IMG/VR virus record: IMGVR_UViG_3300043788_000131
Location: 1-64,000 of that record
Origin: a virus
Direction: 5' to 3' (one strand)
Length of the DNA stretch: 64,000 nt
In this document: piece after piece, positions 4,182 to 52,816 of the stretch
How positions within the stretch are numbered: position 1 is the first letter of the stretch
Layout of the letters: each line of letters begins with the position of its first letter
The notes under the pieces: generated by a model
The model's input: the letters and a program-made list of their open reading frames with translations, nothing else
What the model was told of the DNA's origin: nothing
Databases searched by the model: none
Program-made: the position numbers and the translations under genes

Positions 4182-4441
4182 CGAGAGAGCAGGCTGAACG
4201 GGCTTTAAGCGTTGTCGCCCTCGTGCTCCACAGGGCTGACGTTCACCCGCAGACGGAGTTTCTGAGTGTGGGCGAGGCGAGGGTCACAGAAGAGGACCGC
4301 CGCAAAATCGCCAGGGGGATCGAGAGAAAATTCGGGAATGGTTTCACGTTTCCGCTGTTCGTCGAGGATAAGTGGATAACGGTTTCCGACGTGCTGATGT
4401 CGACCTGGGTGGTTCTTGAGCGTCAGGAAATGGCCGCATGA
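4178..4441 (+). CDS. hypothetical protein
   Basis: GGAGG RBS, GTGA overlap. Confidence 0.6.
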   Translation: MTREQAERALSVVALVLHRADVHPQTEFLSVGEARVTEEDRRKIARGIERKFGNGFTFPLFVEDKWITVSDVLMSTWVVLERQEMAA

Positions 4442-4695
4442 GCGAGAAGTTGACCAACCGCCAATACGATCAGCTATACGCCAAGAGCCGCCGAATCTTA
4501 AAAGTGGTCTATCGCGCGCTCCCTGATGACAACAAGTTGGCGTGGGTAATCGCGGTGGAGGCTTGTGCTGTTGTCTCTCAATTATGCGGCTACTCGCGGA
4601 CTCAATCGGTACAAGCCCTCAAGAGCACATGGCGGCATCTTGAAGAGTGCAATTTGCACGTCGAGCAGGCAGCCAGCGCGAGAAAACGCAAATGA
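4438..4695 (+). CDS. hypothetical protein
   Basis: ATGA-coupled ORF. Confidence 0.6.
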   Translation: MSEKLTNRQYDQLYAKSRRILKVVYRALPDDNKLAWVIAVEACAVVSQLCGYSRTQSVQALKSTWRHLEECNLHVEQAASARKRK

Positions 4696-17634: not shown

Positions 17635-20600
17635 TTACGGCTTTGACGTCTTGGTGGGCCTTGGCCAGTAGCGGTGGCGTTCTTCCGTGGTGGCCTGCTG
17701 CAGGATGGCCTTCTGGTCCTCGTTGTCGAGCCGCGAGAACTGGTAGACGTCTTGGGACTCAGTACCGAGCTTCGAGATAGAATCGGGCTTCATGCCTAGC
17801 TTGATGAGCTTTTGCCGGGCCTCTTGCGTGCCGGTCCAGTCCTTATCGCGCTTGGCAATCAGGTAGCTTTGACGGGCCTCCATCATCGCTTCCATGTTCT
17901 CGCCTTTTTCGAACGACTTCTTTCCTTGCCCCTCATTATAGAGGTAGGCGATGCGGTTCTGGATCGCGTTCTTCTCGACGTAGGCCGGCGCCGGGCCAAA
18001 GCCGAGCACACTCAGGCCCACGCCCGCTGACGTGATGGCGTCCCAGAGTTTTTCGGGGTGCGCGAATATCTCCCCCTTGCTCGGGAACGGATGACCGGAC
18101 AGGCTCGCCGCATGCTTGGCGCCCGACACCGACATCGGGTTGAATTGATCGCCGTAGATGTGCTTGAGCAGTTGCCACGTCCGCTGATACCAGGGCGCGT
18201 TCTCGTCCGTAATGTTGTAGCCGTAATAGTTTCGGTTGTTCCACATTTCCACGAATGGCTCATACATCTGCTTGTTCCAGAGCATCGCGGCCGCGCCCAT
18301 CGGGATGTTGCCGCCGCGCTCCTGGATGTGCTTTTGCAGCATTGGCAGTTCGCGATTGTAGAACATCGTCGTGACGCGCCGCGGGGAGCCGTCCGGGTTC
18401 AGGCCGCCGATCCGCGGGAATGTGTAGTCATCGCCAGTCGGTTTCTCTCCGGTCATCAACCAGGTAATGAGGCCGGCCAACATGGCGCTGATTGCGACAT
18501 AGGCCAGGGCGAACGGAATTTTGTTGGTAGCGTCGCGGGCAATCTTGCGTGGGCCAGACGGAGCAAACGCCGGAAATACGCGCCCAAGGGGGCGTGTGCC
18601 GGCCTCCATCGCCGCGCCACCGAATTCGCGCACAAAGCCGAGGTTCCAGCCAAGGGAGAGGAACGAGGCTTTCGCGGCGTCGGCCAGGATCGGGTCCCAG
18701 GGCAGGTTCTTGTAGTTCATTTCGCCGTAGCGGTTGTCGATCGACTTTGCGATTGCGTGCGCCGCGACGCGCCGGCTCACATCGTCAAGCTGGTATTGCG
18801 GGTTCCGCCTCATCAGGTCAGCGTATGCTTCCAGGTAGGCGTTGGTCTTCAGGGCCGGAATCCATTTCTCGAACAAGGCTTTTTGCGTGAGCTCAATCGG
18901 CAAGCGCATGCCGCCCCAGAAGTATTTAGCCCAATCTGGCACCCCAGCTTCGCCCTTCCTGATCCTCCAATAGGCCTCCTTGAATGCCTTACTAGCAGCG
19001 ATTTTCTGCTGCTCATCCATCTGCGGGATGAAGCCGCCGTCGTTCATGGCGGAGACCATGTATCTTTCGTAGGGCGAGCGTGCAGTATCGGCCTTGAGCC
19101 ACGCTGCCCTGCCTTCGGCACCCCTCCTTGGATGCGTCCAGAATGGGCCGAGCGGGGCGTCCATGAGAGCCTTGAGGGCCGTCGCTGGATCGTGGCCTTT
19201 CACGAGGGCACTAACGGCGCGGGCGGTGCCATTGGCCCAATCAATGCCGACAACGTGCAGCGGATGGAACGCCGAGAGCGAGAGCTTTATCGGAACCCAC
19301 ACATTCTTCAGGCCCATCCAGGCGCGGAAGGTCCCGCCCCAGAAGCCTTGCGCCATCCAAAGGCCCTTGGCGTCGACCATATTCTTCCAAAGCTGCTGGA
19401 CATCCGGCGCAATAACCCATTGCTTGCGATCTGGGGCATTGATGATTTGCCAGCCGCGCTTGACCATGGCCCCGGTGGCCGGGGAGCCCGAGCCCTCCCA
19501 GGCAAGCCCCATTTTCTTGAGCTCGTAGATCATCGCCATCTTGTTGCGCTGGTCTGCGCCGGAGATCAGGCGGTGATTGATGGCGTCGATCGGGTTGGGA
19601 AACTTCAGCTTCATTCCCGCTGCGAGGCCATCCTCGATAAGCTCGTAGGTCCGCTTTTTTTGAAACCACGTCGGACCATGCTGGGCCGTTTGCGTTCGCG
19701 CCCAGGCGGAGTAGTCATCCGGTTTTTGCCAAACGTGCGGAAAATAGTTCTCAACGAAATCAGCCTGTGAACCGTATTGCTTGCCAAGGGCCCAATCTGT
19801 ATCCATCGCGTTGCGATAGTGCGCAGCCATCAGGGCTTCTCTGAGATTCGTCGGGCGCTGTCCGGTCTCTGCCTCTTTCATCCAGCGCAGGCCTTCGGCG
19901 GCGGGCTGCTTGTTCCAGTACTCCCAATCCTTATGGTCACGATCAATGATGCCGTCTTTCTCGCTTTGAGAAGCGGACTTGAACTTCGCAATGACCGGCA
20001 GAGCCCGCATTGCATCGTCGCTGAATAGCTCGGGCTGGAAGGACTTCATCCAAAATGCCTTGACCTGCTTCGCAACAGGCATTTTGGCGATACCGCCCGT
20101 GATCGGGCGCGGCGGTCCTACTCGGGGTGGTTGCTGGCTGGCGCCGCGCGGCCGGGGCGGCTGCGGGCCGTAGTTGGTGCGGGGGGCTTCGAAGCCGGAG
20201 CCGAAAAGGTCGCCCTGGCGCTCGGTCACCTCAAAGTTGGCATCGAACCAATTCGCAAGGTCGGCAAACTGCTTGTCGTGCTCCCACGCGGCTTGTTTGG
20301 TGTGATCGTCGAGCGGCCGCAATTCCTGGTGCCGCGCGGACTCCCCGGTGGCGCTACCCTCGATGCGCTCTTTGATGCCTCCAGCCATGCGGGCGATATG
20401 CTCGGGGCCGGGGTGAGTCTCGCGATACCGGCCATGGTTTACCGCCACGTTGGTCGAATCGGAACTATCGAACGGATAGAGGTGTGCCTGTGACTGCGCC
20501 CTCATCATGTGGATGCGGGGGCGGACGCCGCCGTTGCCGTTCTCGTCCTCGACCTGCTTGACGAAGGCCAAGGCCTCGTCGATGCGGCGGTGCCATTCCG

Positions 20601-23600
20601 GTGTGCCGGGGTCTTTGAAGTCGCCGGAGCTTCCAATTCCCAGGTGGTTAAAGCCGCCCTCCAGCAGCCATCGAAGATAGTCGAGGCTTTCGTGCATGTG
20701 CCAGATCGGCATTGCTCGATCGCTTGGCAGGTTCGTTTCGCGAACCAGTCGCGCGTTTTCTTGTTCCGTGCCCCCGATGATGTCGGGAATGACAGCGACC
20801 GCCTGGGGCGATCGGTCGAGAATGCCCTGCGCCCACTTCTCGAAGCCCTCCACGGCCTCGGGGGTGAACGTGCCTTCGCCGCGGCGCCACATCGAGAACG
20901 CGCCGTTGTCGACAAGTAGAATGCCGTCTTTGCCAACCAACCTGATCGCATCGTCAAGCTGTTTGCCGAGTTTGATGCGCGTCCCGTAGGAGACGCAGAA
21001 CGAGCACCCCTTCAACTGTTCAAGCGCGCTAAGAGGATTGAGCGGCAGCCCGAAGACGACATGCTTCTGCATGTCATGCTTGTCGCGGAACAAGTCTTTA
21101 GTGTCGGAGAACCCGACGATGTTTTCCGGGTGAGCAAACGCGAAGTCTAACTGGCGGGTGGCTGGCGGCGCCTGAGCGCGACCATTTCCTCCGCTTGCTC
21201 GATCAGCCACTCGCGGCTCGGGTCTTCCTGCGGGAGCCGGAGCACGTCGTTCAAATGTTGCTCCCACATCGCCAAGGTGCCGGAATACATTTCCGGTGGA
21301 TCTATCATCACCTGGGCGGGGTTGGCTTGCGGCATTGGGGATGCTCCTTCGCAGGGTATCAGCCGCCTGCTTAATATAGGGTTGAAGGCCGAGGTCTTTA
21401 ATCTCGGCCCGGTAGTCGTTCGTGGTGTGGAAGTGCAGGATGCCGGCCTGACGCAGCACTTCGCCGATCAGGACGTGGTGCATCTTGTTGGCAGTGGCGA
21501 TCGGCAGAAGTTTCCGCTCGTGGACCAACTCGGTGAGCAGCGGAAGGATTTGCTTCTGGCCGATAAACGAGGCGATGCGGCCGAGCGACGCTGCATTGTG
21601 CTTGGCGTCGGGCCCCAGAAGCGATCGGCCAAAATCAGTCAGTGCCCCGCGAGTGACATTGCCTCCGTGGCCGTGTGCCCAGATGGACTCGACCCCAGGC
21701 CAGCCGAGCATGCCGATGTCGCCTTCGCTCAGGGCGCCATTGCTTGGGTGGGTGTGGTGAACGGCAAGTCGGTTGTTGGCGTCGGCGAAGGCCTTCAGCA
21801 TATCGTCGTCGAAGGCGACGTTCTTCGCTTGGCCGCGTAGATGCAGGACCGCGTTGCCCTTCTCGTCGATGGCGAGCAAGTGTTCCAGGCCGGTGCTTAT
21901 GCCCTGGCGGAGGAGATAGTCCTGTGCCTGCTGGCCGGCCGGCCGATTGGGGTCGATGTAGAAGGGGCCACGATCCTCGGCGACCATGGGGCCGGCGGGG
22001 GCGGGGCGGGGCGGACTCTTCCACTCGAACGGTGCTTGGTTCGGATCAACGGGGATGTCCCAGCGGTCGCGAAGCATATTGCCGGTGCTGTTAGGGACCC
22101 CTATATTTTCAGTGGAGGGTGTTATGGCTTCTGGGGCATATGTCGGCGACCACGATCTTTCGGTCGTGTACGTGTTCGACACGTCGGACAAATTCTCCGC
22201 AGTTCGCTCTTCCGGGGCCTGGGAGCGGTTTTCGATGACCGTCGGTGAACTCGCGGCGGACTGGACGCCTGTCTCTGATCCTTCCGAAGTAGCAACCTTG
22301 CTCAAGGCCGCACGAACTTCGCTCTCGGAAATGCCGGTGCGCGCCAAGTAGGCGTCCCATGCGCCCTGGTAAAGGTCACGGCTCCGCTGCATGTCAGCGG
22401 CCATGTCCTTCGTTTCCTGCTCACTCAGGTCAGCTTGGTCTCTATTGCGCCACCGCTCAAAGAGCTTGTGGCCCTCCTTCTTGGCCGCCTCCATTTCGCG
22501 AATCGGCAGGTAGTACTCGACTAGCTGCCCATTCGGCATCCGCAGATCGAACACCGCGATGCGGAAGCCCCATTCCTTCGGCTTGAGAACCTTTGCGGTA
22601 TCGCTTTTGATGATGCTCGCGCCGATCGGCGGCAGCCGCGCGGCAATTTCAGGCAATTCCCGGATGTCATTGAGGATCGTCTTGAACCGGAAGCTGTCCC
22701 GAAGGTGCTCGATCCCGTGCCAGGGCTTTTGTTTCAGGATGGATGGCCGCGAGCCCTTTGAGATTATGTTCTCGGGGAGCTTCTCATTCCATTTGGACTC
22801 GGTGCCAAAATCTCGGTCTATCTGGTCAATGAAGTCCTGGACGATCGGCTTGTTCGCCTCGCTCAGCGCTTGCAGTTGGCGCGCCTTCTCTTCTGGCGTC
22901 GCCTTGCGGTCGATCGGGTTTACGATCTGACTTTCTTCGTACTCGGCAGGATGGTCGGTCCGCCGGGCGAGTTCGGCGATCACGCCGCGCAGCTTGTCCC
23001 GCATTTCGGCGAGCTTGCCGGCGTAGGGCGATTGCTGGCCCTGCTGCGCCTCCAGTTCCGGCAGTGCCTTCTCGGCGGCGTCGATGCGCGCCTGCATCCA
23101 GTCGCCGCGGCTCATGGCGACGGAACGGGTGTCCTTGTCGATTTCATGAAGGGCCTTTTCGATTGCGCGCGTGAAGGCGCCAGCGTCGACAAGCAGGTCT
23201 TTCGGGATGTTATGGAGCTCCGAGGCGGAGATTGTTTTGCCGCCGTCCGTGAGTCCAAACACCATCTGAGTGGACTGATCGCCGGACGCGATCTCGGCCT
23301 CCAGATCGGCACCGAGCACACGGCCGAGCTTCAGGTTGCCGTCCGGCGCCTCCATGACTTTCGGGGTGAGCTCCTTGGCGGCCGTCCACCGGCGCGTGAA
23401 AGTCTTGCCCCCGATAGTGGCCTCGAACGGCTCGAAGTCGCCGAAGGCGTTGGCAAAGGCCGTCGTAAGGTCCTTTTGGTTGGTTATGTCTTCGCCGTCG
23501 ACGTTGATCTTGTACTTTGCGTTTTCGTCGCCGCCTTTCTGAGCGTCGATGATGTCTTGCGCTGCCTTGTTGGCTGCCCCCGAAGCCCTGCTACTTTCAT

Positions 23601-26600
23601 CGTACTTCTTGCCCTCGATCGTGATGCTGCGCTTGGCGGCTTCGGCTTCGACCACATCGCGGCGCGCCTGCATGTCGTCGGCCGCGGCCCGCGTCTTGGC
23701 AATCGCTTCCGGGAAATCGGCAATGGATCGTTTCGCCCGGTCGATCGCGTCCTCAATGCCGTCCATCTTGCGGCGGAAGCCGCGTTCCTGCATTTCGAGC
23801 TTCTCGATCTCGCCGGAGAGCTTCACGCGCTCCAAGAGCATCGGATCGCCGGACGCGAGTGCGGCGATCTCCGCCATCGAGACCGCCTCCTCGTCCGCGA
23901 AGTCCATTTCGAAGGAGCCGTCATACTTGCGGATGCCATTGACCATCCGCAGCTTTTCGGCGTTCAGATCCCACATCTTGGCGTCGATGGTGCGCTCGGT
24001 GACGTAGTTGTGCTCTTCGAGCTCGAAATCCTTCCCGTATTTTTCGAGAAGCTTGTTGCCCTGGCGCACCCACCGGCCGCGGCGCTGCTCAATGTCAGAC
24101 GGCTTCCAGGTCACGTCTTCATGGTGGCCGCCGACAATGCGCTCCTGGGCGTTCATGCCGGCGCCCATGCGCTGGGTCGAGCCGATCAACACGCGGACCT
24201 CGCCAGCGTTGACCGAGTCGATCATTTCCTTTTTTTCGGCGTCGTTGTTGGCTTCCTGCATGAAGCGGATTTCGTCGGCAGGAACCCCGCGGGCGATGAG
24301 GTTGTCCTTGAGTTGCTGATAGGCGTTCCAGCCGCCTTGCTGAGCGCGGCGCAACTCCGCCATTTCGTTCGGGTCGTACTTTTCCAGTTCGTCGTTCGCG
24401 CGCCGCTCGCCTTCCTCGTCGTTGGCGGCTATAGCGTCCCTGCGCTTGGCGATCAGCTTATCGTATTGCTTGAGGATTGCCGCATCGCCTCTGGACTTGG
24501 GTACGCTGCGATCGAGAAAGATTAGCTGCGTGCCCTTGTCCTTATTCCACTTCTTGTAGATGCGCGCGACCTCGTCCGCGGTCACCTCAAGTTTGCCGCC
24601 CTCTTCCTTGCTGGGGTGGTTTGCGTCGACGGCGCGCACGTCGAGCGACACTTTGCGCGCCCGGTCCATGAGGCGCAGCCGTTCCGCATTGCGTTCTTTC
24701 TGGTCCGAAATATCGTCCAGGTGATCGAACCCGTTGATTATTTCGCCAAGGGCCATGATCTGGGCGGCGGTCGGCTTCAGCACATGGGTCTGCATGCCGC
24801 CACCGGCGACCTTCGGGATCGGGAAGTCGGCGCCGTTATTGTCCTCGGCGTACCAGCGGTTGATGTCCTCCTGCGTCACCGAGTCGGTGAAGGAGTGATA
24901 GAGGTCCATCAGCGCCCGCATGTTCGACCACGAACGGCCGAGACGGGTGACCTCTTTCAAACCGTGGCCGGATTCGGTCGGCTCCCACTTGGGCTCCGCG
25001 GAAACGAACTGTGAGCGCCACGCATCGAAGTGTTCGAGGCCGAGTTCGCGCAGTTCCTTGGCCGCGAGGTAGCGCATCATCGTGTACATTTCGACGGCGC
25101 TATTTGAGATCGGCGTGCCAGTCAGGAAGGTTACGGCTCCGGTCGGGCTCTCGTTGAGCACCTTGATCTTGTTGTAGAGGTCGAACGCCTTTTGCGACCC
25201 GCTCTTGTCACCCATGCCGCGAACGCCCTGCATCCGCGAGGAATAGAACAGGTTCTTGAATTCATGAGCCTCATCGACGACGAGGTGGTCGACGCCCATT
25301 TGCTCGAATGTGAGCATGCTGTCGCGCCGGCCGCCACGAAGCCCGGCCAGTCGCGCCTCGATCTTTGAGACCAGTCGCTCCGCTTCCTTGACCGTGTAGT
25401 GCTTGAACCGTCCGGGCGGGGCGTCCGCTTCGGCGTCTGCGAGGGCTTGCTGCGCGACGCGCAGTTCCTCTTCCAGGAAGCGAGTTTCGGTCTCGGGCGC
25501 GATCTTGATAAAGCCGAAGGACGAATGAGGGACGATGACCATGTCCCAATCGCCAGTCGCAATCCGGGCGAACAGCTTGCGGCGGTTCTTCTTGTCGAAC
25601 TGGTTCTTGCCGGCGGCGAGCACCCTGGCGCCGGGATACAGACGATACGCCTCGCTGGCCCACTGCTCGACCAGATGGTTTGGCACGGCGATCATGGGCT
25701 TTTTCACAAGCCCCATGCGCCGCTTTTCCATGACCATGCCGATGGTGGTGAACGTCTTGCCGGCACCGACGACGTGATCGACCAGCATGTTGCGTTCGTA
25801 GATGCCGCGCCAGATCGCATTGTAGATGTGCCGGCGCAGCGAAATATCAGGGCTCTTGCCGGGAAGTGTCAGATGGCGCCCGTCGTGCTGCCGCGGCGTG
25901 CGGGTATTCATTTTGTCGTTGTAGATGCCGACGAGCTCCCGGCGCCGATCGCCGTCGCGGTAGACCCAATCGGCGAAGGCCTGCGTAATCTCGCGTGCCT
26001 TCAGCGCCACGAGTGCGGTCGCCTCCTTGTCGACATGCTCGCCAACCACGCGCCCATCGGCGCCGTATGTCGGCGCCATCACCTTGGGCAGCTTGGAATT
26101 AAGCAGCCCGCGGATGATGGCGTCGGGCGGCATGTCGGGCGTGCCCCATTCCGCGTGCTTGCCCTCGCCGTATTCGGAAGTGAGGAAGTTGAAGGCGTTC
26201 GTGGCCTTCGCGTAATTGACCGTCGCGCTGTCGACGCCGAGAAGGTGCTTCGCAAAATCCTCGTAGACCTTGGGCGGTATCCAGTTCGACCCCATGAGCG
26301 GGGTGACCTGATCGGCGGTCCACTCTTCCGGCTGGACGGCTTCTAGCTCCTTGACGTTCTTCTCCAGGCCGGCACCGCGCGCGGCAGCGAGCTTGCGGCG
26401 CACTTGGCCGGAGAGGTAGGCGCTGCGCGGCTCCCAGCGCTGCAATTCCGGGTCATAGAAGGCCAGCGGCTTGTCACCGGCGCTCAGCGCCTCGCCGACC
26501 TTGTCCTCGGGGATGTCGAGCAGCTTGGCGACGCGGGGCACGTCAATGAAGCCGCGTTCGGAGAGCGAGATCGCCAGAGCGTCGGCGGGCGAGGCCGCCT

Positions 26601-29600
26601 TGTCCGGCGGCTCGTATTTGAGGATGACCCGCTTGGAGAGGATGGCGGCCTGCTTGGCGCTAGCCTTGCGGACCTTGCCGCCGGTGCGCGCCGCCTTGGT
26701 GTTGGTGATGGCCGGCCGGTAGCCGCTTTCGAGCGACATCAGCAACGGACCGTCCGGCATTTCGTTGAGAAGCCGCATGTTTGATGGATCATGCAGCAAG
26801 CCATTCTTGTCGGTATAGCCGCGATAGGCCGCGGCGAGCCGGCCGCGGTTGCCCTCCATCACTTTCGCCGGTGCGTCCTGGGTCTCAATCTCGATCTGCC
26901 GGCGTAGCGCATCGCGCATTCGGGTGAGATCGGACACCCGATCGAAGCGGGTGGCGCCCAGGCGCAGGGGCTGCGGCACTTCGTTGTTCGGGAAATACTT
27001 GCGCTCGTAGACGTTGCGGGTGCCCTGTTTGACCCTGACGCCCTTTGCGTCGACCTTGGGCTCCAGGGTGAACCAGCGGCCCTCATTGTCCATCATCAAC
27101 TGGCGCGACCAGGGCGTGTCGGCGTCGACAACGCGCTTGATCGGCTCGAAGTCGCCGTTTGCGGTCTCGCGTTCCGCGATTTGGGTGAGCGCGCCCTTGT
27201 CGTCGTACTCAAGATGGCCGGGCTCAAGCCCGCGCAGCGCGATCTTGATGCTGTCGGATAGCGTCTCGAAACGCTTGAGCGTGCGGTCAATGACCTCCTT
27301 GCCGAGGTCGAGCTTGTTCTTGGGCAAGCGCTCGACGGCCTTGTCCAGCAAGTCCTGATATTCGTCCTTGTCCGCCAGCTTTACGTTGAGTTTGCCGCCG
27401 GCACGCATGGTGCCGGAGCGCTCCAGGCGCCCGACGATCATATCGGGATGATCGGCGAAGTAGCGGTTGACCTTCAGCGGCTCGCCGCCGAGCGGGTCCT
27501 TTACCTCTTCGGTATCGAGCCATGGGACCTTGCGCTGCAGTTCGCCTCGCGCCCTGGCGCGTAGGTCTGCGTCCTCTCTGCTCTTGCCGGGGGCTTGCGT
27601 CGCGTCGATGAGGTCCTGGATTTCCTTCTCTTCCTCCGGCGTGCGGCGCTGCATTGCCACGAGGTCGGTAACAACTTCGGTGCGCGCGTTCTCCTTGAAC
27701 GCCGTATCAGGAAGGCGAATGGCGCCGAGAAGATCGGCTTTTACCGCCATCTTCTCGCGCGCGGATGCTACCTGCGCATCGAGCAGATAGTGAGAGACCA
27801 CGGCGATGTGCAAGCCGCCCGGCTGCAGGGCGTCAAGCGACGCGAGGAAGAATTGATTGTGGATCGACTGCCCGTAGAGTTCGGGCTTGTGCTGGAACCG
27901 CAGCGATTCCTTGCCGAAGGGCGGGTTGCCGATCGAAAGCACGAATTCGCCGTCCGGCAGCGGCAACTTCTCGAAGCCGGTGTGAAGGACAGTCTCTTGC
28001 GGGTAAAGTGCCTTGGCGATGCGCGCAGTGATGCTGTCGATCTCCGCGCCGATGAAATGCGTCTGCCCGGCGAGGCGTTCGGGAATGAGGCCGAGGAAAT
28101 TGCCGGTCCCCATCGAGGATTCGAGTGCGAGGCCGCCCTTGAACCCAAGCCTCTCGGCAATCTTCCAGGCGGCATCGACGATCGCCTTGGAGGTGTAATG
28201 GGCGGCGAGCGTGGAATGCTGGGCGGCGCGAAGCTCTTCCTTGGTCAGGAGTGGTTCGAGGGTCTCGCCGCGCTCCTTCCAGTCCGGCTTGAACTCATTG
28301 GTGCCGGGCTGGCGGAAGGCGTTCGCCAGCCCGCCCCAGCCGACATAGCGGGCGAGGATGCGCTGCTCGGCCGACGTCGGGCGTCGGTCCTCGGCCTCGA
28401 TCTTCTTGAGGGTCTCGATGGCCGCGATGTTGTCCCAGAATTTGACGCCCTCGGAGCCCTTGCCAAGTTCCGTCTCGTTGGTGATGCGGTAGTTGACCGC
28501 CGGGACGCTGGGCGCCTGCTCGGGCTTTACATCTGGGAGGCGGGGGGCGGATTCTTTTGGTACTCGCGCTCCATTTCCCGCAACTCCTCCTCCTGCTCGT
28601 CGTCCTCCGGCGGAGCCTCCGGCTGTAGGAGGATGTGCTGCGGGAGCGCCACTTCCCGCGCCTCCGAAATCGAATAGTGACGGTCCTGCATCAGGTGCTC
28701 GATTTCCCTTTGCGCCAGGACGGCCGCCGCGTGCACCTCCTCCGGGTACTTGCCCTCCTGCTTGAGTTTGCGGACCTTCTCCGGGAGCCACTCCGCCCAA
28801 TGCTTTCGGGCCAGACTTTCCAGTTCTTGGACGCTCATCAGGGGTCTCCCAATCAAACAGCGACGTTTGACCAGCCTTCTTGGGCTTCTCAGTGATTTGT
28901 GGTGGCGGGGCCGGCGGCGCAACCTGATCGGGGAAGGCGTTCTGCGGCCTTGCAAGTTCCCCAAGGCGCTTTTGTGCATACTCTTTTTGCGCTGCTTCAA
29001 ATTCGGCACGGTTGATGACGGTGTTACCGGGTCTGGACGGCTCTACGCCGCGGCGCGCTCGCACTTCCCATTTTGGACCAAACCGATCCCTCATAAAATC
29101 GAGGAAGCGGGGCCCGGTAGCCAAATCTATAATCTCTGGGTAAGTGAGTTCGCGGGGCCCAGACGGGGCAGCCTCGCTTACCTTTTTTGCCTCTACGGAA
29201 GCCGCTGGTGCGCGTTCCTGTTTGGTGGGGGCTACTCGCGCCTTCTCGGCTTCATACGCTTGGCGGGCCGCATCGCGGACGTCGTAGGCCTTGCGCAGCG
29301 CACTTCCTGGTTCGCCCTTGCCGGCGGCGCCATACCTCTTATCACCAGCCTCTTTGCCGAATGCTTTCTGAAGTTCGGCCGACCATGCATCATCGGCCTT
29401 CTGAAGGGCCATATCGAGTTCGGTAAGACCGTGAGGCTTTGGTTGAGCCAGCAGGTCGAGTTGATTGCGCTGGTCACCAAACAGGCCGCCCTCAAGTGGC
29501 TTCTGCGCGACCTTTGGCTTTAGGGGCTCGCCTGCTCGCCGCCGGGCAAGCTCGGCACCGCTTCGCTGCTCGCTGCCGGGGATGACAAGTTGGGGGCGTC

Positions 29601-32600
29601 CTTCGGCTCCGGGCTCTGCGCCGTATTTGGGCTCGGGCTCTGCGAGTCGTCGTCCCATGCGCTCGTCGCCAGTCCGTGGGCCATTCTCCCCAGCCCCGGT
29701 TGGCCGGTTGACGCCGCCACCCTCTTGCCCATGCGCCCGAGCAGAAGCGCCCTGGGTTTTCGCAGCCGCCGCCGCTTTAAGCTCATTAGAGGTTACCTTC
29801 GGTATGCCAAGCGCCAAGCCTTCCTCGGTCGAGACCTTGGCTGCCTCGCGAGCGTAGAACTCAAGAGCTTCCGCAATCTTTGCTGTTCCGAGAGCCCGAC
29901 GAGTCCGCGGGTCGTAGAACAGCCGCACCAGATAGTCGACGTCGTTCTTGTATGTATCGAACGCATCTTCCTGCGCAAGGTAGTCGTCGATCTTCATGCC
30001 CTTGGAGCGAACGTCCGCCGTTCGTTTGACGGCCTCCAATAGGTCAGCAGTGATGTCCAATTCCTCGGGGGTGCGGCCGGCGTCGATCTCGGCCCGCATC
30101 TTTGCCCATGTTGGCGCCGCGGCTGTAAGCGCATTCGAGATCGACTTCACGTCATCGTCGGTCGATTCCGTGATGCGCGCGAGGATGTCAGCGTCGCCAT
30201 AGGCCTTGGCCAGGATGGCGTTGCGAACGCGGGTCAGGCCCTCAGCCGAGAGACCGCCGCCGGCACTCGTGAGATTGCCCCGCTCGGACGCCGGCAGTGC
30301 ACCAACAAATGACCGGACAAAGGCGCGGTTCTCCAAAGAGCCAAGGTCGCTGTCACGTATCTGGTCGAGCATATCCGGCGTGACATGGCCTGCGTCGGCC
30401 ATAGCGCGTTCAGGAGCGGACATTGAAAGGGTGGCGGCCTGATTGGCGGCAACCACGAAATCGCGACGCTCGGCCTCGTCCAGGTCGCTGACGCGCTGTC
30501 TGACCAGGACCGGCTCTTTGTACTTCGAGACATCGACGCCCTGGGCCGTGAGCCAGTCGCGGTATTTCTTGGCGTTCGCCCCGTGGCCGCTGATGACGCC
30601 GTAGATTTTGCGCAGCGCCAGCACCCGGCCATTGCCGCTCTCGACCATCTTGTCGGGCCCGACGATCGGGGCGCCGCGATCGGCCTCAGCCGAGTAGCCC
30701 AGGCGCTCGGGATCGAGTTTGGTGGCAATCTCGCGGATCTGCGCTTGGCTCGCCGCGCGATCGCGTTGGCGTGGCTGCAGGGCGGCGTCGTAGCCCTTGT
30801 CTGCTGACGTGATAAGGTCGGCCGCTTCAACAACAACCGGCTTGACCTTTACAGACGCGCCATCGGCCGCGGTGACCTTGTGGTCACCGATTTTTTCTAC
30901 CGGCTGTCCGATCAGGGGAGCGCTGGAGGCTTTGGGGGAAGTTTGAGATTTCCGAGGGGGGGCTTCTGCACGCTGCCGAGGCTCGCGGGGAGTGCTTTCG
31001 GGAGGGCGCTGCCCGCTGGCGGTGCCGCGAACGGGATGCTCTCCTGCTTCGGCACGACCGGGCTTCCCAGCGCCTTCGGCGGCGACAGGGCCGGCACCGC
31101 CTTCGGCAGGGCGAGCTTCTTCGCCGCCCGGAACTCGTTCAGGCGCAGCCGCGGGAGCCGCGGGAGCCGCCCCACCAGTTCCGGTGCCGCGTGCTTCAGG
31201 GCGTGACTTGCTTGCCCCTCGGGGCGATAAAGCTGCGGCGACTTCTTCACCGAATTCCTCCTTGACCTGCTCGGGCGCCAGCAGGCCATCGGCCACCAAA
31301 TCGCGGGCAACCGCGACTTTGAAGGCCATGTTGGGGGCAAGCCCCTCGCGAGCGTGAATTTCGGCGGCATGCGCGATCGAGCGCGGCCGCAGGGTATTGG
31401 TGGGGATCTGGTTCTCGCGAAGCATCTTCTCGATGGCTTCGCGGTGCGCCGCGGTGACGTGGATCTCGGGAGGTTCCGGTGTGCGAACAGGGCCGGAAGT
31501 CGCCCCTGTTTTCGCACTAGCGGGCTTGGCGCCCACGACCCCCACCCCTCCGGCGGCCGTGGGTTCCCGCCCACCCGATACATTATATATGGCATCCGAC
31601 ACGGGCCGGGTGAGGTCGCCCTTCCGCCACTCCCGGAACTCGTCGATCGAGAGCGCCCGCATGCCCCCCATCTGGCTGGGGCGCTTCCCGTCCGTCGCCT
31701 TATAGGCCTCGATCGCCTCGATCGGGGTTTGAAAGCCGGCGAAAACCTTGTGCTGCTTGAATTTGCCGGTGTCCCGGTCGAGTTCGTCGATCACATAGAC
31801 CGTGGGCGCCGTGGGATGCTGCCCAAAGTAGGCGTCGAGGTGATCCCCATCGGCGCCGGTCGTACCCTTGAAGTACCCGTGCGCGGTCGGAAAGTGCTGG
31901 TCGTAGGGTGTGCCGTCCGGTGCGATCCCCTTGCGGACGCCGCCGGCTCCGGCTTCGAGCGTCGCATCCATGCCGTTCCAAGTGACATGGACCCGCTGGG
32001 TATTGTTCGCCTCGCCCTGGGCGTGGCTGTAGTTCTCGTTGACCAGATCGCCGGCACGTTTGACGTCGGCGGCTGACTTGAGGTCGATCGGCTGATCGCG
32101 CGTTCCCGGTCCGGCTTCCTCGGCGCCCGTCATGCCGCCGTAGCCTTCGTGCTCCCGGATGATCGCTTCCTTTTCCTCCGGCGACCAGCCAGCGATTTCG
32201 TCCTCAGTGAAGAAGCGACGCAGGATTTCGTCATCGCTCGCGAGGCCCCCGGCGGGGTGCCCGCGGGCTACATCCTCGGGCGCCATCGTCGAAATATCGC
32301 GCTTCGAAAAACCCTTCGCCGACAGGGCGTCGGCCTTGGTCATATACCTGCGCATATCTTTGAGATTGGCGTTGCGCAGTTCGTCGTCGGTGAACCAGAA
32401 ATCCCTCTTCAGTTGGTCCTTCATTCCAGCGAAAGCGCGGCGTTTTTGTTCCTCCGCCGTTGGTGCTGGCGTTTCGTCCCACTGTTTCTGCCAAGCCTGA
32501 TGCGCAGCCGTGCGCGCGGCTTTTTCTTCTTCTGGGATCTGCGATTCTTCGTGCTTGCGCCGGTCTTCGTCGGCAGTCGTGTCCCCCGTGCCCGTGCCCG

Positions 32601-33741
32601 TGTTGGTGGCGCCCCGATTCTTCAGCCCTTCGAGGCCAGCGTGACCCGCGCCGAGGACGCCGCCGGTTAGGGCTTCAGCCGCAATACGCTTTGGATCAAA
32701 CTCATATCCGGCCTTCGGATTGTAGAGTTGGTCGATCTTGGCCTGGATGGCTGTTTGTAGCTCGCCGATGCCGGTGAAGGCGGCAGCGTCAATAGTGCCA
32801 TCGAGCAGCATCTTTACGGCGAGGCTCGCCGCCTTCGGCGCAAATCCTCTCAGGACTGCAGCGAGCGGAATGCTCCCGAGCGTCGCTTGCAGTGCACCTG
32901 ACTTGGACGCCGCATCGCGAGCCGTGGCTTCGTCAGCGCCCGCCTCCTTCGCCGCCTTGTAGGTCTCGCCGACGCCCGAAAGGCCAAAGAGGGCCGCACC
33001 GCCTACGATCGCGGCGGCCTCGGGCACGCCTGGGATCATTGCCGCGCCGATCACCGCGCCAGCGGTGCCGAGGCCCGAGCCGACTTGGCCGGTGAAGGAC
33101 GCCTGCTCTTCTTTGGTAAGCGGGATGTTTTTTCCGAATTGCTCGACCGCCTCGCCGGCTTTGTAGAGCGAGGATTCCTCGGGTTTTGGAGCGGGCTCGT
33201 TTGCGGTGATGCGCGTGTCAGCCGTGGCGAGACCCTGAAGGGCGTGGCCGGCCATGGAGATAGGGGCTCGCGCCGCGGCTCTGCCAAGAGTGCTGGCTGC
33301 GTCGAGCGCACCGGGGATACCAAGTAATGGAACGGCGCCGCGTACCGCGGCCTTGCCGAGACTGCTGGCAATGCTGCCGAGCGTCGATGGCTGCTGTGCC
33401 GGTGCCGCCTGGGCCTCTTCGGGTTGGTCATTCGGGCGCGGCGGCTCTTGTACGCCGCCTGCCGGCATGCCGAATTCCGCGAAGTCTGGGCCCTGGTTGG
33501 CGTGCTCTTTATCAGCACCAAATTCCGCGAAGTCGAGATTCTCCGCCTTTTGCCGCTCTTGGGCGCGCTGGGCGAGCTTGTCCTGTTGCTTGCGGATAAG
33601 CCGATTGACTACCGTCTGTGGATCAACGGCGCCGTTCTGGGCAAGGTCCGGCGCGCGCTGACCGATAAAATCTCTGAGGCTCTGACCTGGGTCCTGGTCA
33701 GTTTGCGGGTCGGTCGCCCCGAGCGCGTCTTCGAGAGCCAT
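17635..33741 (-). CDS. 5368-aa polyvalent virion/ejection protein, DarB-like (PPase, ParB, N6-adenine MTase, SNF2 helicase, RelA/SpoT NTase, JAB, TGT-like)
   Basis: GYFKGTTGADGDHLD (~31850); VESGNGRVLAL (~30630); SSMGTGNF and GNPPFG (~28110, ~27920); DHVVGAGKT and DEAH (~25765, ~25270); HLRDSFRFK..GFR..VEYYL (~22700-22510); HTHPS..LSEGD (~21750); DNGAFS..PDIIGG..DSSDSTN (~20900-20450). Confidence 0.93.
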   Translation of the reverse strand: MALEDALGATDPQTDQDPGQSLRDFIGQRAPDLAQNGAVDPQTVVNRLIRKQQDKLAQRAQERQKAENLDFAEFGADKEHANQGPDFAEFGMPAGGVQEPPRPNDQPEEAQAAPAQQPSTLGSIASSLGKAAVRGAVPLLGIPGALDAASTLGRAAARAPISMAGHALQGLATADTRITANEPAPKPEESSLYKAGEAVEQFGKNIPLTKEEQASFTGQVGSGLGTAGAVIGAAMIPGVPEAAAIVGGAALFGLSGVGETYKAAKEAGADEATARDAASKSGALQATLGSIPLAAVLRGFAPKAASLAVKMLLDGTIDAAAFTGIGELQTAIQAKIDQLYNPKAGYEFDPKRIAAEALTGGVLGAGHAGLEGLKNRGATNTGTGTGDTTADEDRRKHEESQIPEEEKAARTAAHQAWQKQWDETPAPTAEEQKRRAFAGMKDQLKRDFWFTDDELRNANLKDMRRYMTKADALSAKGFSKRDISTMAPEDVARGHPAGGLASDDEILRRFFTEDEIAGWSPEEKEAIIREHEGYGGMTGAEEAGPGTRDQPIDLKSAADVKRAGDLVNENYSHAQGEANNTQRVHVTWNGMDATLEAGAGGVRKGIAPDGTPYDQHFPTAHGYFKGTTGADGDHLDAYFGQHPTAPTVYVIDELDRDTGKFKQHKVFAGFQTPIEAIEAYKATDGKRPSQMGGMRALSIDEFREWRKGDLTRPVSDAIYNVSGGREPTAAGGVGVVGAKPASAKTGATSGPVRTPEPPEIHVTAAHREAIEKMLRENQIPTNTLRPRSIAHAAEIHAREGLAPNMAFKVAVARDLVADGLLAPEQVKEEFGEEVAAALSPRGASKSRPEARGTGTGGAAPAAPAAAPERVPGGEEARPAEGGAGPVAAEGAGKPGRAEAGEHPVRGTASGQRPPESTPREPRQRAEAPPRKSQTSPKASSAPLIGQPVEKIGDHKVTAADGASVKVKPVVVEAADLITSADKGYDAALQPRQRDRAASQAQIREIATKLDPERLGYSAEADRGAPIVGPDKMVESGNGRVLALRKIYGVISGHGANAKKYRDWLTAQGVDVSKYKEPVLVRQRVSDLDEAERRDFVVAANQAATLSMSAPERAMADAGHVTPDMLDQIRDSDLGSLENRAFVRSFVGALPASERGNLTSAGGGLSAEGLTRVRNAILAKAYGDADILARITESTDDDVKSISNALTAAAPTWAKMRAEIDAGRTPEELDITADLLEAVKRTADVRSKGMKIDDYLAQEDAFDTYKNDVDYLVRLFYDPRTRRALGTAKIAEALEFYAREAAKVSTEEGLALGIPKVTSNELKAAAAAKTQGASARAHGQEGGGVNRPTGAGENGPRTGDERMGRRLAEPEPKYGAEPGAEGRPQLVIPGSEQRSGAELARRRAGEPLKPKVAQKPLEGGLFGDQRNQLDLLAQPKPHGLTELDMALQKADDAWSAELQKAFGKEAGDKRYGAAGKGEPGSALRKAYDVRDAARQAYEAEKARVAPTKQERAPAASVEAKKVSEAAPSGPRELTYPEIIDLATGPRFLDFMRDRFGPKWEVRARRGVEPSRPGNTVINRAEFEAAQKEYAQKRLGELARPQNAFPDQVAPPAPPPQITEKPKKAGQTSLFDWETPDERPRTGKSGPKALGGVAPGEGPQTQAGGQVPGGGARGGRPGAKGNRAPDAGPSLFDFGGAGSGAPAAHPPTAGGSAGGRRAGGGVAGNGARVPKESAPRLPDVKPEQAPSVPAVNYRITNETELGKGSEGVKFWDNIAAIETLKKIEAEDRRPTSAEQRILARYVGWGGLANAFRQPGTNEFKPDWKERGETLEPLLTKEELRAAQHSTLAAHYTSKAIVDAAWKIAERLGFKGGLALESSMGTGNFLGLIPERLAGQTHFIGAEIDSITARIAKALYPQETVLHTGFEKLPLPDGEFVLSIGNPPFGKESLRFQHKPELYGQSIHNQFFLASLDALQPGGLHIAVVSHYLLDAQVASAREKMAVKADLLGAIRLPDTAFKENARTEVVTDLVAMQRRTPEEEKEIQDLIDATQAPGKSREDADLRARARGELQRKVPWLDTEEVKDPLGGEPLKVNRYFADHPDMIVGRLERSGTMRAGGKLNVKLADKDEYQDLLDKAVERLPKNKLDLGKEVIDRTLKRFETLSDSIKIALRGLEPGHLEYDDKGALTQIAERETANGDFEPIKRVVDADTPWSRQLMMDNEGRWFTLEPKVDAKGVRVKQGTRNVYERKYFPNNEVPQPLRLGATRFDRVSDLTRMRDALRRQIEIETQDAPAKVMEGNRGRLAAAYRGYTDKNGLLHDPSNMRLLNEMPDGPLLMSLESGYRPAITNTKAARTGGKVRKASAKQAAILSKRVILKYEPPDKAASPADALAISLSERGFIDVPRVAKLLDIPEDKVGEALSAGDKPLAFYDPELQRWEPRSAYLSGQVRRKLAAARGAGLEKNVKELEAVQPEEWTADQVTPLMGSNWIPPKVYEDFAKHLLGVDSATVNYAKATNAFNFLTSEYGEGKHAEWGTPDMPPDAIIRGLLNSKLPKVMAPTYGADGRVVGEHVDKEATALVALKAREITQAFADWVYRDGDRRRELVGIYNDKMNTRTPRQHDGRHLTLPGKSPDISLRRHIYNAIWRGIYERNMLVDHVVGAGKTFTTIGMVMEKRRMGLVKKPMIAVPNHLVEQWASEAYRLYPGARVLAAGKNQFDKKNRRKLFARIATGDWDMVIVPHSSFGFIKIAPETETRFLEEELRVAQQALADAEADAPPGRFKHYTVKEAERLVSKIEARLAGLRGGRRDSMLTFEQMGVDHLVVDEAHEFKNLFYSSRMQGVRGMGDKSGSQKAFDLYNKIKVLNESPTGAVTFLTGTPISNSAVEMYTMMRYLAAKELRELGLEHFDAWRSQFVSAEPKWEPTESGHGLKEVTRLGRSWSNMRALMDLYHSFTDSVTQEDINRWYAEDNNGADFPIPKVAGGGMQTHVLKPTAAQIMALGEIINGFDHLDDISDQKERNAERLRLMDRARKVSLDVRAVDANHPSKEEGGKLEVTADEVARIYKKWNKDKGTQLIFLDRSVPKSRGDAAILKQYDKLIAKRRDAIAANDEEGERRANDELEKYDPNEMAELRRAQQGGWNAYQQLKDNLIARGVPADEIRFMQEANNDAEKKEMIDSVNAGEVRVLIGSTQRMGAGMNAQERIVGGHHEDVTWKPSDIEQRRGRWVRQGNKLLEKYGKDFELEEHNYVTERTIDAKMWDLNAEKLRMVNGIRKYDGSFEMDFADEEAVSMAEIAALASGDPMLLERVKLSGEIEKLEMQERGFRRKMDGIEDAIDRAKRSIADFPEAIAKTRAAADDMQARRDVVEAEAAKRSITIEGKKYDESSRASGAANKAAQDIIDAQKGGDENAKYKINVDGEDITNQKDLTTAFANAFGDFEPFEATIGGKTFTRRWTAAKELTPKVMEAPDGNLKLGRVLGADLEAEIASGDQSTQMVFGLTDGGKTISASELHNIPKDLLVDAGAFTRAIEKALHEIDKDTRSVAMSRGDWMQARIDAAEKALPELEAQQGQQSPYAGKLAEMRDKLRGVIAELARRTDHPAEYEESQIVNPIDRKATPEEKARQLQALSEANKPIVQDFIDQIDRDFGTESKWNEKLPENIISKGSRPSILKQKPWHGIEHLRDSFRFKTILNDIRELPEIAARLPPIGASIIKSDTAKVLKPKEWGFRIAVFDLRMPNGQLVEYYLPIREMEAAKKEGHKLFERWRNRDQADLSEQETKDMAADMQRSRDLYQGAWDAYLARTGISESEVRAALSKVATSEGSETGVQSAASSPTVIENRSQAPEERTAENLSDVSNTYTTERSWSPTYAPEAITPSTENIGVPNSTGNMLRDRWDIPVDPNQAPFEWKSPPRPAPAGPMVAEDRGPFYIDPNRPAGQQAQDYLLRQGISTGLEHLLAIDEKGNAVLHLRGQAKNVAFDDDMLKAFADANNRLAVHHTHPSNGALSEGDIGMLGWPGVESIWAHGHGGNVTRGALTDFGRSLLGPDAKHNAASLGRIASFIGQKQILPLLTELVHERKLLPIATANKMHHVLIGEVLRQAGILHFHTTNDYRAEIKDLGLQPYIKQAADTLRRSIPNAASQPRPGDDRSTGNVFRHLGDVGATFERRAPAPAGRPEPRVADRASGGNGRAQAPPATRQLDFAFAHPENIVGFSDTKDLFRDKHDMQKHVVFGLPLNPLSALEQLKGCSFCVSYGTRIKLGKQLDDAIRLVGKDGILLVDNGAFSMWRRGEGTFTPEAVEGFEKWAQGILDRSPQAVAVIPDIIGGTEQENARLVRETNLPSDRAMPIWHMHESLDYLRWLLEGGFNHLGIGSSGDFKDPGTPEWHRRIDEALAFVKQVEDENGNGGVRPRIHMMRAQSQAHLYPFDSSDSTNVAVNHGRYRETHPGPEHIARMAGGIKERIEGSATGESARHQELRPLDDHTKQAAWEHDKQFADLANWFDANFEVTERQGDLFGSGFEAPRTNYGPQPPRPRGASQQPPRVGPPRPITGGIAKMPVAKQVKAFWMKSFQPELFSDDAMRALPVIAKFKSASQSEKDGIIDRDHKDWEYWNKQPAAEGLRWMKEAETGQRPTNLREALMAAHYRNAMDTDWALGKQYGSQADFVENYFPHVWQKPDDYSAWARTQTAQHGPTWFQKKRTYELIEDGLAAGMKLKFPNPIDAINHRLISGADQRNKMAMIYELKKMGLAWEGSGSPATGAMVKRGWQIINAPDRKQWVIAPDVQQLWKNMVDAKGLWMAQGFWGGTFRAWMGLKNVWVPIKLSLSAFHPLHVVGIDWANGTARAVSALVKGHDPATALKALMDAPLGPFWTHPRRGAEGRAAWLKADTARSPYERYMVSAMNDGGFIPQMDEQQKIAASKAFKEAYWRIRKGEAGVPDWAKYFWGGMRLPIELTQKALFEKWIPALKTNAYLEAYADLMRRNPQYQLDDVSRRVAAHAIAKSIDNRYGEMNYKNLPWDPILADAAKASFLSLGWNLGFVREFGGAAMEAGTRPLGRVFPAFAPSGPRKIARDATNKIPFALAYVAISAMLAGLITWLMTGEKPTGDDYTFPRIGGLNPDGSPRRVTTMFYNRELPMLQKHIQERGGNIPMGAAAMLWNKQMYEPFVEMWNNRNYYGYNITDENAPWYQRTWQLLKHIYGDQFNPMSVSGAKHAASLSGHPFPSKGEIFAHPEKLWDAITSAGVGLSVLGFGPAPAYVEKNAIQNRIAYLYNEGQGKKSFEKGENMEAMMEARQSYLIAKRDKDWTGTQEARQKLIKLGMKPDSISKLGTESQDVYQFSRLDNEDQKAILQQATTEERHRYWPRPTKTSKP
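21147..21335 (-). CDS. nested out-of-frame small protein directly after JAB domain
   Basis: AAGGAG 8 nt before ATG; globular-looking sequence while host frame is a low-complexity R/P/A linker. Confidence 0.6.
   Translation of the reverse strand: MPQANPAQVMIDPPEMYSGTLAMWEQHLNDVLRLPQEDPSREWLIEQAEEMVALRRRQPPAS
22079..22107 (+). promoter_or_regulatory. sigma70-type promoter for nested antisense gene
   Basis: TTGCCG-N17-TATATT, 16 nt upstream of ATG 22124 with GGAGGG RBS between. Confidence 0.65.
22124..22351 (+). CDS. nested antisense 75-aa protein adjacent to RelA/SpoT domain (candidate antitoxin)
   Basis: own promoter, GGAGGG RBS; MASGAYVGDHDLSVVYVFDTSDKFSAVRSSGAWERF...WTPVSDPSEVATLLKAARTSLS. 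Confidence 0.7.
   Translation: MASGAYVGDHDLSVVYVFDTSDKFSAVRSSGAWERFSMTVGELAADWTPVSDPSEVATLLKAARTSLSEMPVRAK
28527..28838 (-). CDS. nested out-of-frame 103-aa helical protein before MTase domain (TnpV-like by eye)
   Basis: GGGAG RBS; MSVQELESLARKHWAEWLPEKVRKLKQEGKY...EAREVALPQHILLQPE; host frame is G/R/P linker. Confidence 0.75.
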   Translation of the reverse strand: MSVQELESLARKHWAEWLPEKVRKLKQEGKYPEEVHAAAVLAQREIEHLMQDRHYSISEAREVALPQHILLQPEAPPEDDEQEEELREMEREYQKNPPPASQM

Positions 33742-35214: not shown

Positions 35215-35853
35215 ATGGAGATTCGTTCGCGGAAAGAGGCACTAGCGGCGGGTGCCAAGTTCTATTTCACAGGCAAGCCCTGCTCAAAAGGGCATGTCTG
35301 TGAGCGCTACGCAGACGGCGGTGACAAAGGCCGATGCCGTCAGTGCGCCAAAGAGCGCGTCAAACGCGCTTTGGGGAGATACCGCGCGAGGCATAAAGCG
35401 AAGATTGCCGCTGACAGCGCCGCGCACTACCAAGCAAATAAGGCCGAGAGAAATGCCGCCGCGGCAGCGTGGCGAAAGGCCAACCCCGAACGCACGCGCG
35501 CCTTTACGGCAAAATGGCAAGAAGTCAACCGCGAGGAATACCGCAAGATCGGCCGCGAATGGGGCCAAAACAACAAGGACAAGATGCGGGCACAGAGGGC
35601 ACGGCGCCGCGGCTCTGAAGGCTTCCACTCAGAGGCAGATGTGCTTGAAATCCTCAAGCTGCAGCGAGGGCGGTGCGCCATGCCGTCTTGCCGAAAGAAA
35701 CTTGGTAAGTATGAGGTGGATCACATCGTTCCGATCAATGGCGGCGGGTCGAATTGGCGCCAGAACATTCAACTGCTCTGCCCCAGGTGCAATGCCAGTA
35801 AGGGTGCGCGCGACCCGCTGGACCATTCGCGCATGCTCGGCTTTCTTCTTTAA
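35215..35853 (+). CDS. HNH homing endonuclease
   Basis: YFTGKPCSKGH; QRGRCA..C..YEVDHIVPINGGGSNWRQNIQLLCPRCNASK; inserted antisense in late operon. Confidence 0.92.
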   Translation: MEIRSRKEALAAGAKFYFTGKPCSKGHVCERYADGGDKGRCRQCAKERVKRALGRYRARHKAKIAADSAAHYQANKAERNAAAAAWRKANPERTRAFTAKWQEVNREEYRKIGREWGQNNKDKMRAQRARRRGSEGFHSEADVLEILKLQRGRCAMPSCRKKLGKYEVDHIVPINGGGSNWRQNIQLLCPRCNASKGARDPLDHSRMLGFLL

Positions 35854-52815: not shown

Positions 52816-52816
52816 C

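Follow-up and report, generated by a model that had tools for sequence, protein, structure and literature searches.

A DpdA-like base-exchange domain as a module of a DarB-like polyvalent protein in a phage genome from IMG/VR

Introduction

Can an enzyme that exchanges bases in nucleic acid be built into one of the giant effector proteins of phages, and what would it do there? The question is raised by 64,000 nucleotides of viral DNA (IMG/VR record IMGVR_UViG_3300043788_000131), hereafter the window, which is the first 64 kb of a contig of 101,797 bp (96% complete by CheckV). An uninterrupted open reading frame (ORF) on its minus strand encodes P0001, a protein of 5368 residues, within which a first-pass annotation made from the sequence alone had assigned one domain to the tRNA/DNA-guanine transglycosylase (TGT) or DpdA fold. 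DpdA enzymes replace guanine in DNA with 7-deazaguanines. Here, we show that the domain is a divergent branch of the DpdA/TGT superfamily and that it recurs in polyvalent proteins, and we weigh what it may do in this one.

Domain identity and fold

The domain lies at the site first proposed for it (positions 20360 to 21075), with two amendments. It is encoded on the minus strand, which had not been stated (the plus-strand frame is rich in stop codons), and its limits shift slightly: the initial Met, at nucleotides 21072-21070, is one codon within the proposed upper limit, and the lower end reaches ~20320, beyond the proposed one. All six motifs that had been quoted from it map on the minus strand of P0001. 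The fold assignment itself stands, as a DpdA-type triosephosphate isomerase (TIM) barrel of the TGT superfamily, on the evidence of a structural model, structure comparison, and profile alignment.

Relatives are plentiful among phages. PHROG 887 ("queuine tRNA-ribosyltransferase") matches the domain with E 9e-26, its sole match in the genome, and an exhaustive search of 1.84 billion representatives returned 385 relatives at E<=1e-3, of which 56 reached E<=1e-30. With tblastn, the domain found 90 phage records at ~30% identity. Characterized or named relatives include a homolog in Rhizobium phage RHph_N3_2 (BLASTP, E 5e-32), DpdA of Salmonella phage 7-11 (AEK81947; BLASTP, E 5e-24), and DpdA of Pantoea phage MED16 (gp38; tblastn, E 2e-18). 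A profile of 62 family sequences aligned by hhalign with the DpdA of phage CAjan at 96.7% probability (E 4e-10), with all motifs in register. Two comparisons with Escherichia coli TGT were set aside: hhalign of the profile against this single sequence aligned only DSGGFQ, at 0.3% probability, and is not used as homology evidence, and tblastn of the E. coli enzyme against phage records recovered true tgt genes only and no DpdA, so it provides no bridge. The domain and the 62-sequence profile gave no match in a PDB sequence search, nor did PF01702 or PF23859 match anywhere in the whole phage genome.

The domain was modeled as a (beta/alpha)8 TIM barrel with a predicted local distance difference test (pLDDT) score of 94, and it most resembles TGT-family structures: in an exhaustive structural alignment against 48,161 solved chains, the top four were archaeosine TGT (ArcTGT), Cap10, TGT, and DpdA. 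The exhaustive aligner was needed to put this family on top; Foldseek against the PDB listed generic TIM barrels (TrpA) first and ArcTGT 11th.

Within the superfamily, the closest characterized enzymes are the "singleton" DpdAs, which form group 3 of Hutinet et al. 2019 (PMC6884629) and cluster DpdA/TGT_1 of the MED16 study (PMC8306585). The DpdAs of 7-11 and MED16 are homologous to the domain over ~225 residues at 29-33% identity; they too are bare barrels of ~230-300 residues with the same motifs, from phages without precursor-synthesis genes. Phage 7-11 is the named "DpdA-only" phage, with traces of the deoxynucleoside of 7-amido-7-deazaguanine (dADG) in its DNA (PMC6884629), and MED16 DNA carries dADG as well, its DpdA matching TGT at 99% in HHpred (PMC8306585). 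In contrast, these two DpdAs are free-standing early or DNA-metabolism genes, whereas here the barrel is an internal module of a late protein of 5368 residues. The enzymes for which 7-deazaguanine exchange in DNA has been shown are distant relatives only, those of CAjan, 9g, nt-1, and VH7D (PMC10516641, PMC6884629); in CAjan, deletion of dpdA abolishes dPreQ0 (PMC6884629). Neither DpdA1 of CAjan and 9g nor bacterial DpdA (PDB 7UI4) has BLAST-level similarity to the domain, which also has no PF23859 match. CAjan, unlike this phage, encodes a full preQ0 pathway beside dpdA, and bacterial DpdA is a DpdB-dependent protein of 413 residues with insertions, whereas the domain is a bare barrel.

The domain is not classed as a tRNA TGT. 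Bacterial TGT and ArcTGT have no significant sequence match to it, and they have a Zn-binding subdomain and PUA or C-terminal tRNA-binding parts, which it lacks. It is a barrel of ~250 residues between low-complexity linkers, without a Cys/His cluster, and is ~120-320 residues shorter than TGT and ArcTGT (matched chains of 373-577 residues).

Active site

Six alignment columns are invariant in the 62 sequences (D56, D98, I100, H126, H189, and D206). In P0001, the catalytic-type positions are D4278, D4320, H4348, H4411, and D4428, each of which the model places at the C-terminus of a barrel strand, and these five are kept in four polyvalent copies, in free-standing relatives, and in phage 7-11. 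Bacterial DpdA provides the roles: Asp95...Phe99 serve as acid/base and gate, Asp130 and His181 bind the base edge, and Asp256 is the nucleophile (PMC10164549). The domain has a counterpart for each, namely an acid/base Asp followed by an aromatic gate (F4282, equivalent to Phe99), a base-recognition Asp and His with a Gly-rich loop, and a nucleophile Asp on the last strand, D4428 lying at the end of model strand 204-207. The GIGSSG loop corresponds to the Gly-rich beta6 loop of TGT and DpdA (Gly206-207 in the bacterial enzyme; PMC10164549). DNGAFS aligns to LDSGAFS of CAjan DpdA, and to DSGGFQ of E. coli TGT in an alignment that is not significant alone.

The first-pass annotation had named failure of the catalytic aspartates to align as grounds for abandoning its assignment; they align one-to-one with the CAjan DpdA motifs. 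Judged by these motifs, the domain is most likely catalytically intact.

A DarB-like polyvalent carrier

By the definition in PMC5512222, P0001 is a model example of a polyvalent protein of the P1 DarB type. It combines many effector domains, among them the signature modules of the class (DarB methyltransferase-helicase, ddrB-ParB, InPase, and LPD; Table 1), and is encoded with packaging and morphogenesis genes, directly downstream of head, tail-fiber, virion-protein, and ejection-protein genes on the same strand. It shares with P1 DarB and the polyvalent proteins of Iyer et al. 2017 the methyltransferase and SNF2 helicase core, the InPase, ddrB-ParB, and LPD38-like domains, and the position beside morphogenesis genes, and it has a RadC/JAB-type domain as others of them do (PMC5512222). 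The methyltransferase that the first-pass annotation had set alongside the domain resides in the same polypeptide, within the phrog_10089 match; a GNPPFG motif is found at residue 1938, and the Pfam matches to SNF2 and Helicase_C are weak. By analogy with P1 DarB and from the position of its gene, we infer that P0001 would be packaged in the capsid and co-injected.

Table 1. Features of P0001 and of upstream genes, in order along the minus strand (positions are those of the window).
Feature	Position	Residues of P0001	Strand	Evidence
Major head protein, upstream of P0001	46153..47145		minus	phrog_1357; 49% identity to Escherichia phage PTXU04 capsid protein
Upstream gene, "DNA ejection protein" match	35850..36953		minus	phrog_4287, E 1e-9
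Giant polyvalent ORF P0001, last gene of the structural/late block	17635..33741	5368 in all	minus	Uninterrupted ORF, domains matched throughout
InPase domain, typical of polyvalent proteins	31621..32022	574-707	minus	PF18823, E 2e-32
ddrB-like ParB domain	30493..30864	960-1083	minus	PF18763, E 7e-33
DarB-like N6-adenine methyltransferase and SNF2 helicase core	22849..28824	~1640-3631	minus	phrog_10089 "DarB-like antirestriction," E down to 3e-151
RadC/JAB-like HxH...S..D metal motif	21718..21759	3995-4008	minus	Motif-level recognition only
Linker before the domain, Pro/Gly/Arg-rich, with HPENIVG and DLF motifs	21073..21320		minus	Kin motifs in P0091, P0004, and P0002
DpdA-like (TGT-superfamily) TIM-barrel domain	20320..21072	4224-4474	minus	Model, homology
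MQKHVVFG, start of the domain	starts at 21072	starts at 4224	minus	Motif mapping
DNGAFS, with D4278 as predicted general acid/base (= bacterial DpdA Asp95)	20893..20910	from 4278	minus	Asp invariant in 62 sequences
D4320 in IPDIIGG, predicted base-recognition Asp (= bacterial DpdA Asp130)	20782..20784	4320 (motif from 4318)	minus	Invariant; CAjan Asp aligned; in all polyvalent copies
H4348 in WHMHE, predicted base-recognition His (= bacterial DpdA His181)	20698..20700	4348 (motif from 4347)	minus	Invariant; CAjan His aligned
GIGSSG loop after the sixth strand, predicted 7-substituent pocket	20623..20640	from 4368	minus	G and S nearly invariant; after model strand 144-148
IHMMR		starts at 4410	minus	Motif mapping
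D4428 in FDSSDSTN, predicted nucleophile (= bacterial DpdA Asp256)	20458..20460	4428 (motif from 4424)	minus	Invariant; aligned to SCDSS Asp of CAjan DpdA
C-terminal 888 residues, LPD38-like	17638..20301		minus	Feature match to viral clusters bearing PF18857 LPD38

Both the enzyme family and the carrier class are known; we did not find the combination in the literature searched. The first-pass annotation knew of no such domain as a standard component of polyvalent proteins, and, consistent with this, the terms TGT, queuine, and deazaguanine are absent from the main text of the 2017 survey. The 2021 jumbo-phage survey handles deazaguanine systems and polyvalent proteins separately and draws no link, and full-text searches that paired DpdA or deazaguanine with DarB or polyvalent proteins yielded nothing of relevance.

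The remaining parts of P0001 include several less familiar elements. Motifs of the form Q-x-[DS]-L-F-[GD] recur in its low-complexity linkers (residues 1419, 1627, 1688, 4216, and 4511), five observed against 1.1 expected, a count reached in 2 of 500 shuffles; two of them flank the DpdA-like domain, and such motifs also occur in P0002, P0003, and P0091, polyvalent proteins described below. They presumably resemble the beta-sliding-clamp-binding pentapeptide QL[SD]LF. Also ahead of the domain, at residues 4204-4210 (21112-21132, minus strand), is the linker motif HPE(N/A)IVG, present in P0091 too and in related pre-domain forms in P0004 (REHIVGL) and P0002 (DKIVGF); it may serve in processing or in docking. 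The stretch that separates the helicase from the JAB-like domain (22465-23400, minus strand; ~residues 3690-3900) has, by eye, the look of a RelA/SpoT-type nucleotidyltransferase; no Pfam or PHROG model matched it, and it is conserved in P0002 (46% identity over 3602-4537). The C-terminal tail has a single hydrophobic helix at residues 5074-5097 in a hydropathy scan, and tblastn of the C-terminal 888 residues against phage records gave no match among cultured phages.

Upstream of the head gene, three large ORFs of 472, 935, and 891 residues occupy 47185-55740 on the minus strand. These stand where portal, terminase, or scaffold genes would be expected, and PHROG yields no hit for any of them at E<=1e-3; current families represent the morphogenesis module in this lineage poorly.

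Probable capture and recurrence in polyvalent proteins

The domain begins at an internal Met, from which the first-pass annotation had suspected the capture of a standalone gene, and its relatives are consistent with this. Most of the 385 are proteins of 230-400 residues, the closest of which (52-60% identity) begin at the internal Met position. The related IMG/VR loci all encode free-standing genes (14/14), and 13 of these 14 homologs align by BLAST to residue 4224 from their own residue 1 or from a few residues past an alternative start. No Shine-Dalgarno-like sequence precedes the internal ATG in P0001, so we rejected separate expression from it; the domain is therefore made within the giant protein.

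The fusion recurs in five polyvalent proteins with differing domain orders. Besides P0001, four proteins from independent contigs contain the domain. P0002 (4010 residues) and P0003 (5466 residues) each have the polyvalent modules of P0001 in another order. In the fragment P0004 (1569 residues), a Zeta-kinase is followed by JAB and then by the DpdA-like domain, and in the fragment P0091, a helicase takes the first place; the order JAB then DpdA-like is thus common to P0001, P0004, and P0091. A Pfam RadC domain is also found in one free-standing family member. In a maximum likelihood tree of 93 domains, four polyvalent copies form one clade (Shimodaira-Hasegawa-like approximate likelihood ratio test, SH-aLRT, 99) with free-standing forms all around, and the ancestral Met is retained in four of the five polyvalent copies. 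Altogether, a free-standing phage gene was most likely the source of the domain, in a single capture followed by shuffling among polyvalent proteins; the direction of these events is something we infer, since the tree is rooted at its midpoint only.

The clade to which the domain belongs is a distinct branch, mostly of uncultured phages, with 55-73% identity among its members. A near copy (57% identity), preceded by the same DLFRHDM linker, occurs in Roseiarcus fermentans DSM 24875 (NZ_QNRK01000012.1; L020:9284-10827). Because it is split across two reading frames, this copy is probably a decaying prophage or polyvalent remnant. We considered naming a host from it, and found the evidence too weak, in that near copies are confined to Roseiarcus genomes, in one of which the copy is frameshifted.

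Precursor genes and genomic neighbors

The first-pass annotation had seen no preQ0 synthesis genes in the window, and this holds across the whole genome of 101,797 bp, which has no QueC, QueD, QueE (radical-SAM), FolE, or YhhQ gene. A partner gene was likewise sought there and rejected, with no QueC, QueD, FolE, radical-SAM, 3'-phosphoadenosine-5'-phosphosulfate (PAPS)-reductase, or YhhQ match. Neither QueC nor YhhQ is encoded on the 14 related viral contigs. Such absence defines the singleton DpdA group, for which host preQ0 or imported precursors have been proposed (PMC6884629).

In cultured phages, the relatives do have 7-deazaguanine genes beside them. A Vut_1/YhhQ-type transporter gene directly follows the homolog in Rhizobium phage RHph_N3_2, overlapping its stop codon; a DUF165 gene is two genes upstream of the homolog in RHph_X2_30; and a QueD-like gene is directly upstream in Caulobacter phage DMCA. 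More generally, DNA-metabolism and DNA-modification genes neighbor the relatives. In Pseudomonas phage Epa33 (L025 2369-5198), the homolog is directly upstream of a 2.1-kb C5-cytosine DNA methylase gene, which is another pairing of the DpdA-like family with a DNA-modification enzyme.

The commonest partner of the DpdA-like clade is a PAPS-reductase-type PP-loop ATPase (PF01507), the only neighbor to recur across the 14 viral loci. As an N-terminal fusion it is found in P0012, P0014, P0153, P0155, and P0156, and it is encoded immediately upstream in three viral contigs (L001:9149-9991, L008:9126-9935, and L003:8011-9303). The pair may mark an undescribed two-enzyme DNA modification, as it resembles the QueC-TGT logic with another PP-loop family.

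Proposed function and alternatives

On balance, we favor reading the domain as a catalytically intact phage singleton DpdA, captured as a module, that would modify DNA with a base from the host and so place a protective mark beside that of the methyltransferase. The 7-deazaguanine genes beside its cultured-phage relatives lead us to settle on DNA as the target and on a 7-deazaguanine as the base brought in; the first-pass annotation had also offered tRNA, to which no result of our analysis points. Double-displacement base exchange is established for TGT and DpdA (PMC10164549). In the same manner, Asp4428 would attack C1' of the target deoxyguanosine and Asp4278 would act as general acid/base, so that guanine departs and a free 7-deazaguanine base takes its place. 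The incoming base would be preQ0 or a near derivative, such as 7-amido-7-deazaguanine (ADG), 7-carboxy-7-deazaguanine (CDG), or preQ1, held by Asp4320, His4348, and the GIGSSG loop. It would have to be supplied from the host pool, because the phage lacks FolE, QueD, QueE, QueC, and YhhQ. Phage DNA would be marked either on entry or late, before packaging; we propose these two times because the carrier looks head-packaged and co-injected, in the manner of P1 DarB. The mark would then be a second, non-methyl layer of protection beside methylation.

A more specific version is tentative, and we think it less likely than not: the pre-packaged domain would enter with the genome and swap selected guanines of the unreplicated DNA for a host 7-deazaguanine before restriction, perhaps after being released or positioned by the JAB-like domain and the clamp-binding-like linkers.

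Several observations weigh against the favored reading. As to identity, no curated TGT or DpdA model matches the domain, even at permissive thresholds (PF01702, PF23859, NCBIfam, and PADLOC), and, with PHROG 887 the sole model to match, membership rests on profile-profile, BLAST-chain, and structural evidence. Nor is the fold by itself decisive, because generic TIM barrels score only ~1 Z unit under the TGT-family matches. As to activity, singleton DpdAs modify little DNA: 0.02% of G in phage 7-11 and none in Orion (PMC6884629), and 0.13% of G in MED16, where no protection from restriction was seen (PMC8306585). A benefit can for this reason only be presumed. Bacterial DpdA requires the ParB-like ATPase DpdB (PMC10164549); in P0001, the ddrB-ParB domain shares a polypeptide with the DpdA-like domain. 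As to supply, a newly infected cell may contain too little free preQ0 for protection to be fast, and in Roseiarcus fermentans, whose genome is the only cultured one to hold a near copy, TGT matches strongly and the QueC-like matches are weak and partial. Finally, the PP-loop partner of the relatives, which is absent from this phage genome, hints at chemistry past plain preQ0 insertion.

The best-surviving alternative keeps the enzyme and its chemistry and confines both to the producing cell, where late expression would mark progeny DNA before or during packaging, the fusion would provide co-expression and proximity to DNA, and the injected copy would be useless. We regard it as rather unlikely, with real points in its favor: all known DpdA modifications are post-replicative (PMC10516641), the giant gene is last in the structural/late block, and slow singleton DpdAs suit a long late period more than the first minutes of infection. 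However, in other phages this task falls to a free-standing gene, which leaves the reason for the fusion unclear, and the fusion has been kept in five polyvalent proteins with differing domain orders. In addition, the remaining modules of the carrier belong to the DarB type, and DarB itself works once injected (PMC5512222).

That the domain serves as counter-defense against immunity that uses 7-deazaguanines seems improbable to us. It would either copy the host Dpd "self" mark (dPreQ0 or dADG) onto phage DNA or disturb the conjugation of nucleobase to protein by the TGT-like Cap10 of type IV CBASS (cyclic oligonucleotide-based antiphage signaling system), Cap10 being a structural neighbor in our alignment. 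At the sequence level, however, nothing links the domain to Cap10 or to bacterial DpdA (no PF23859 match), and mimicry of Dpd falls within the reading we favor as a special case, with no separate chemistry.

The founding members of the TGT superfamily act on tRNA, so the domain might be thought a takeover or toxic effector that exchanges or removes G/Q34 of host tRNAs or cuts guanines from host DNA. Host-directed enzymes are also frequent in polyvalent proteins (PMC5512222). Even so, we find such an attack on host nucleic acid very improbable, as the closest characterized relatives are DNA enzymes, the relatives are neighbored by DNA-metabolism and DNA-modification genes, and the 250-residue bare barrel is without the C-terminal parts by which TGT and ArcTGT bind Zn and recognize tRNA. 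Least probable of all is a dead or differently specialized barrel, acting as a DNA-binding or structural spacer or using a base other than 7-deazaguanine: the lack of modification by the singleton DpdA of mycobacteriophage Orion (PMC6884629), the lack of a curated model match, and the unknown chemistry suggested by the PP-loop partner speak for it, but the five catalytic positions are invariant in 62 diverse sequences and all polyvalent copies, which is unexpected for a spacer, and YhhQ-like and QueD genes adjoin relatives.

Implications

DpdA is known as a free-standing, post-replicative DNA modifier, and polyvalent proteins are thought to be effector kits delivered with the invading DNA. These two fields meet in an intact-looking DpdA-type barrel that recurs as a module in DarB-like polyvalent proteins; a base-exchange enzyme would extend the list of known polyvalent modules and is a concrete candidate for an enzyme that marks DNA with 7-deazaguanine at entry. 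The function of singleton DpdAs, left open in 2019 (PMC6884629), is a further question on which the finding bears. The combination suggests that phages can carry an anti-restriction enzyme of this kind along with their genome as cargo. If the domain is indeed pre-packaged and acts on incoming DNA, it would be the first injected base-exchange, non-methyl anti-restriction enzyme, and the phage could copy the host Dpd "self" mark on arrival.

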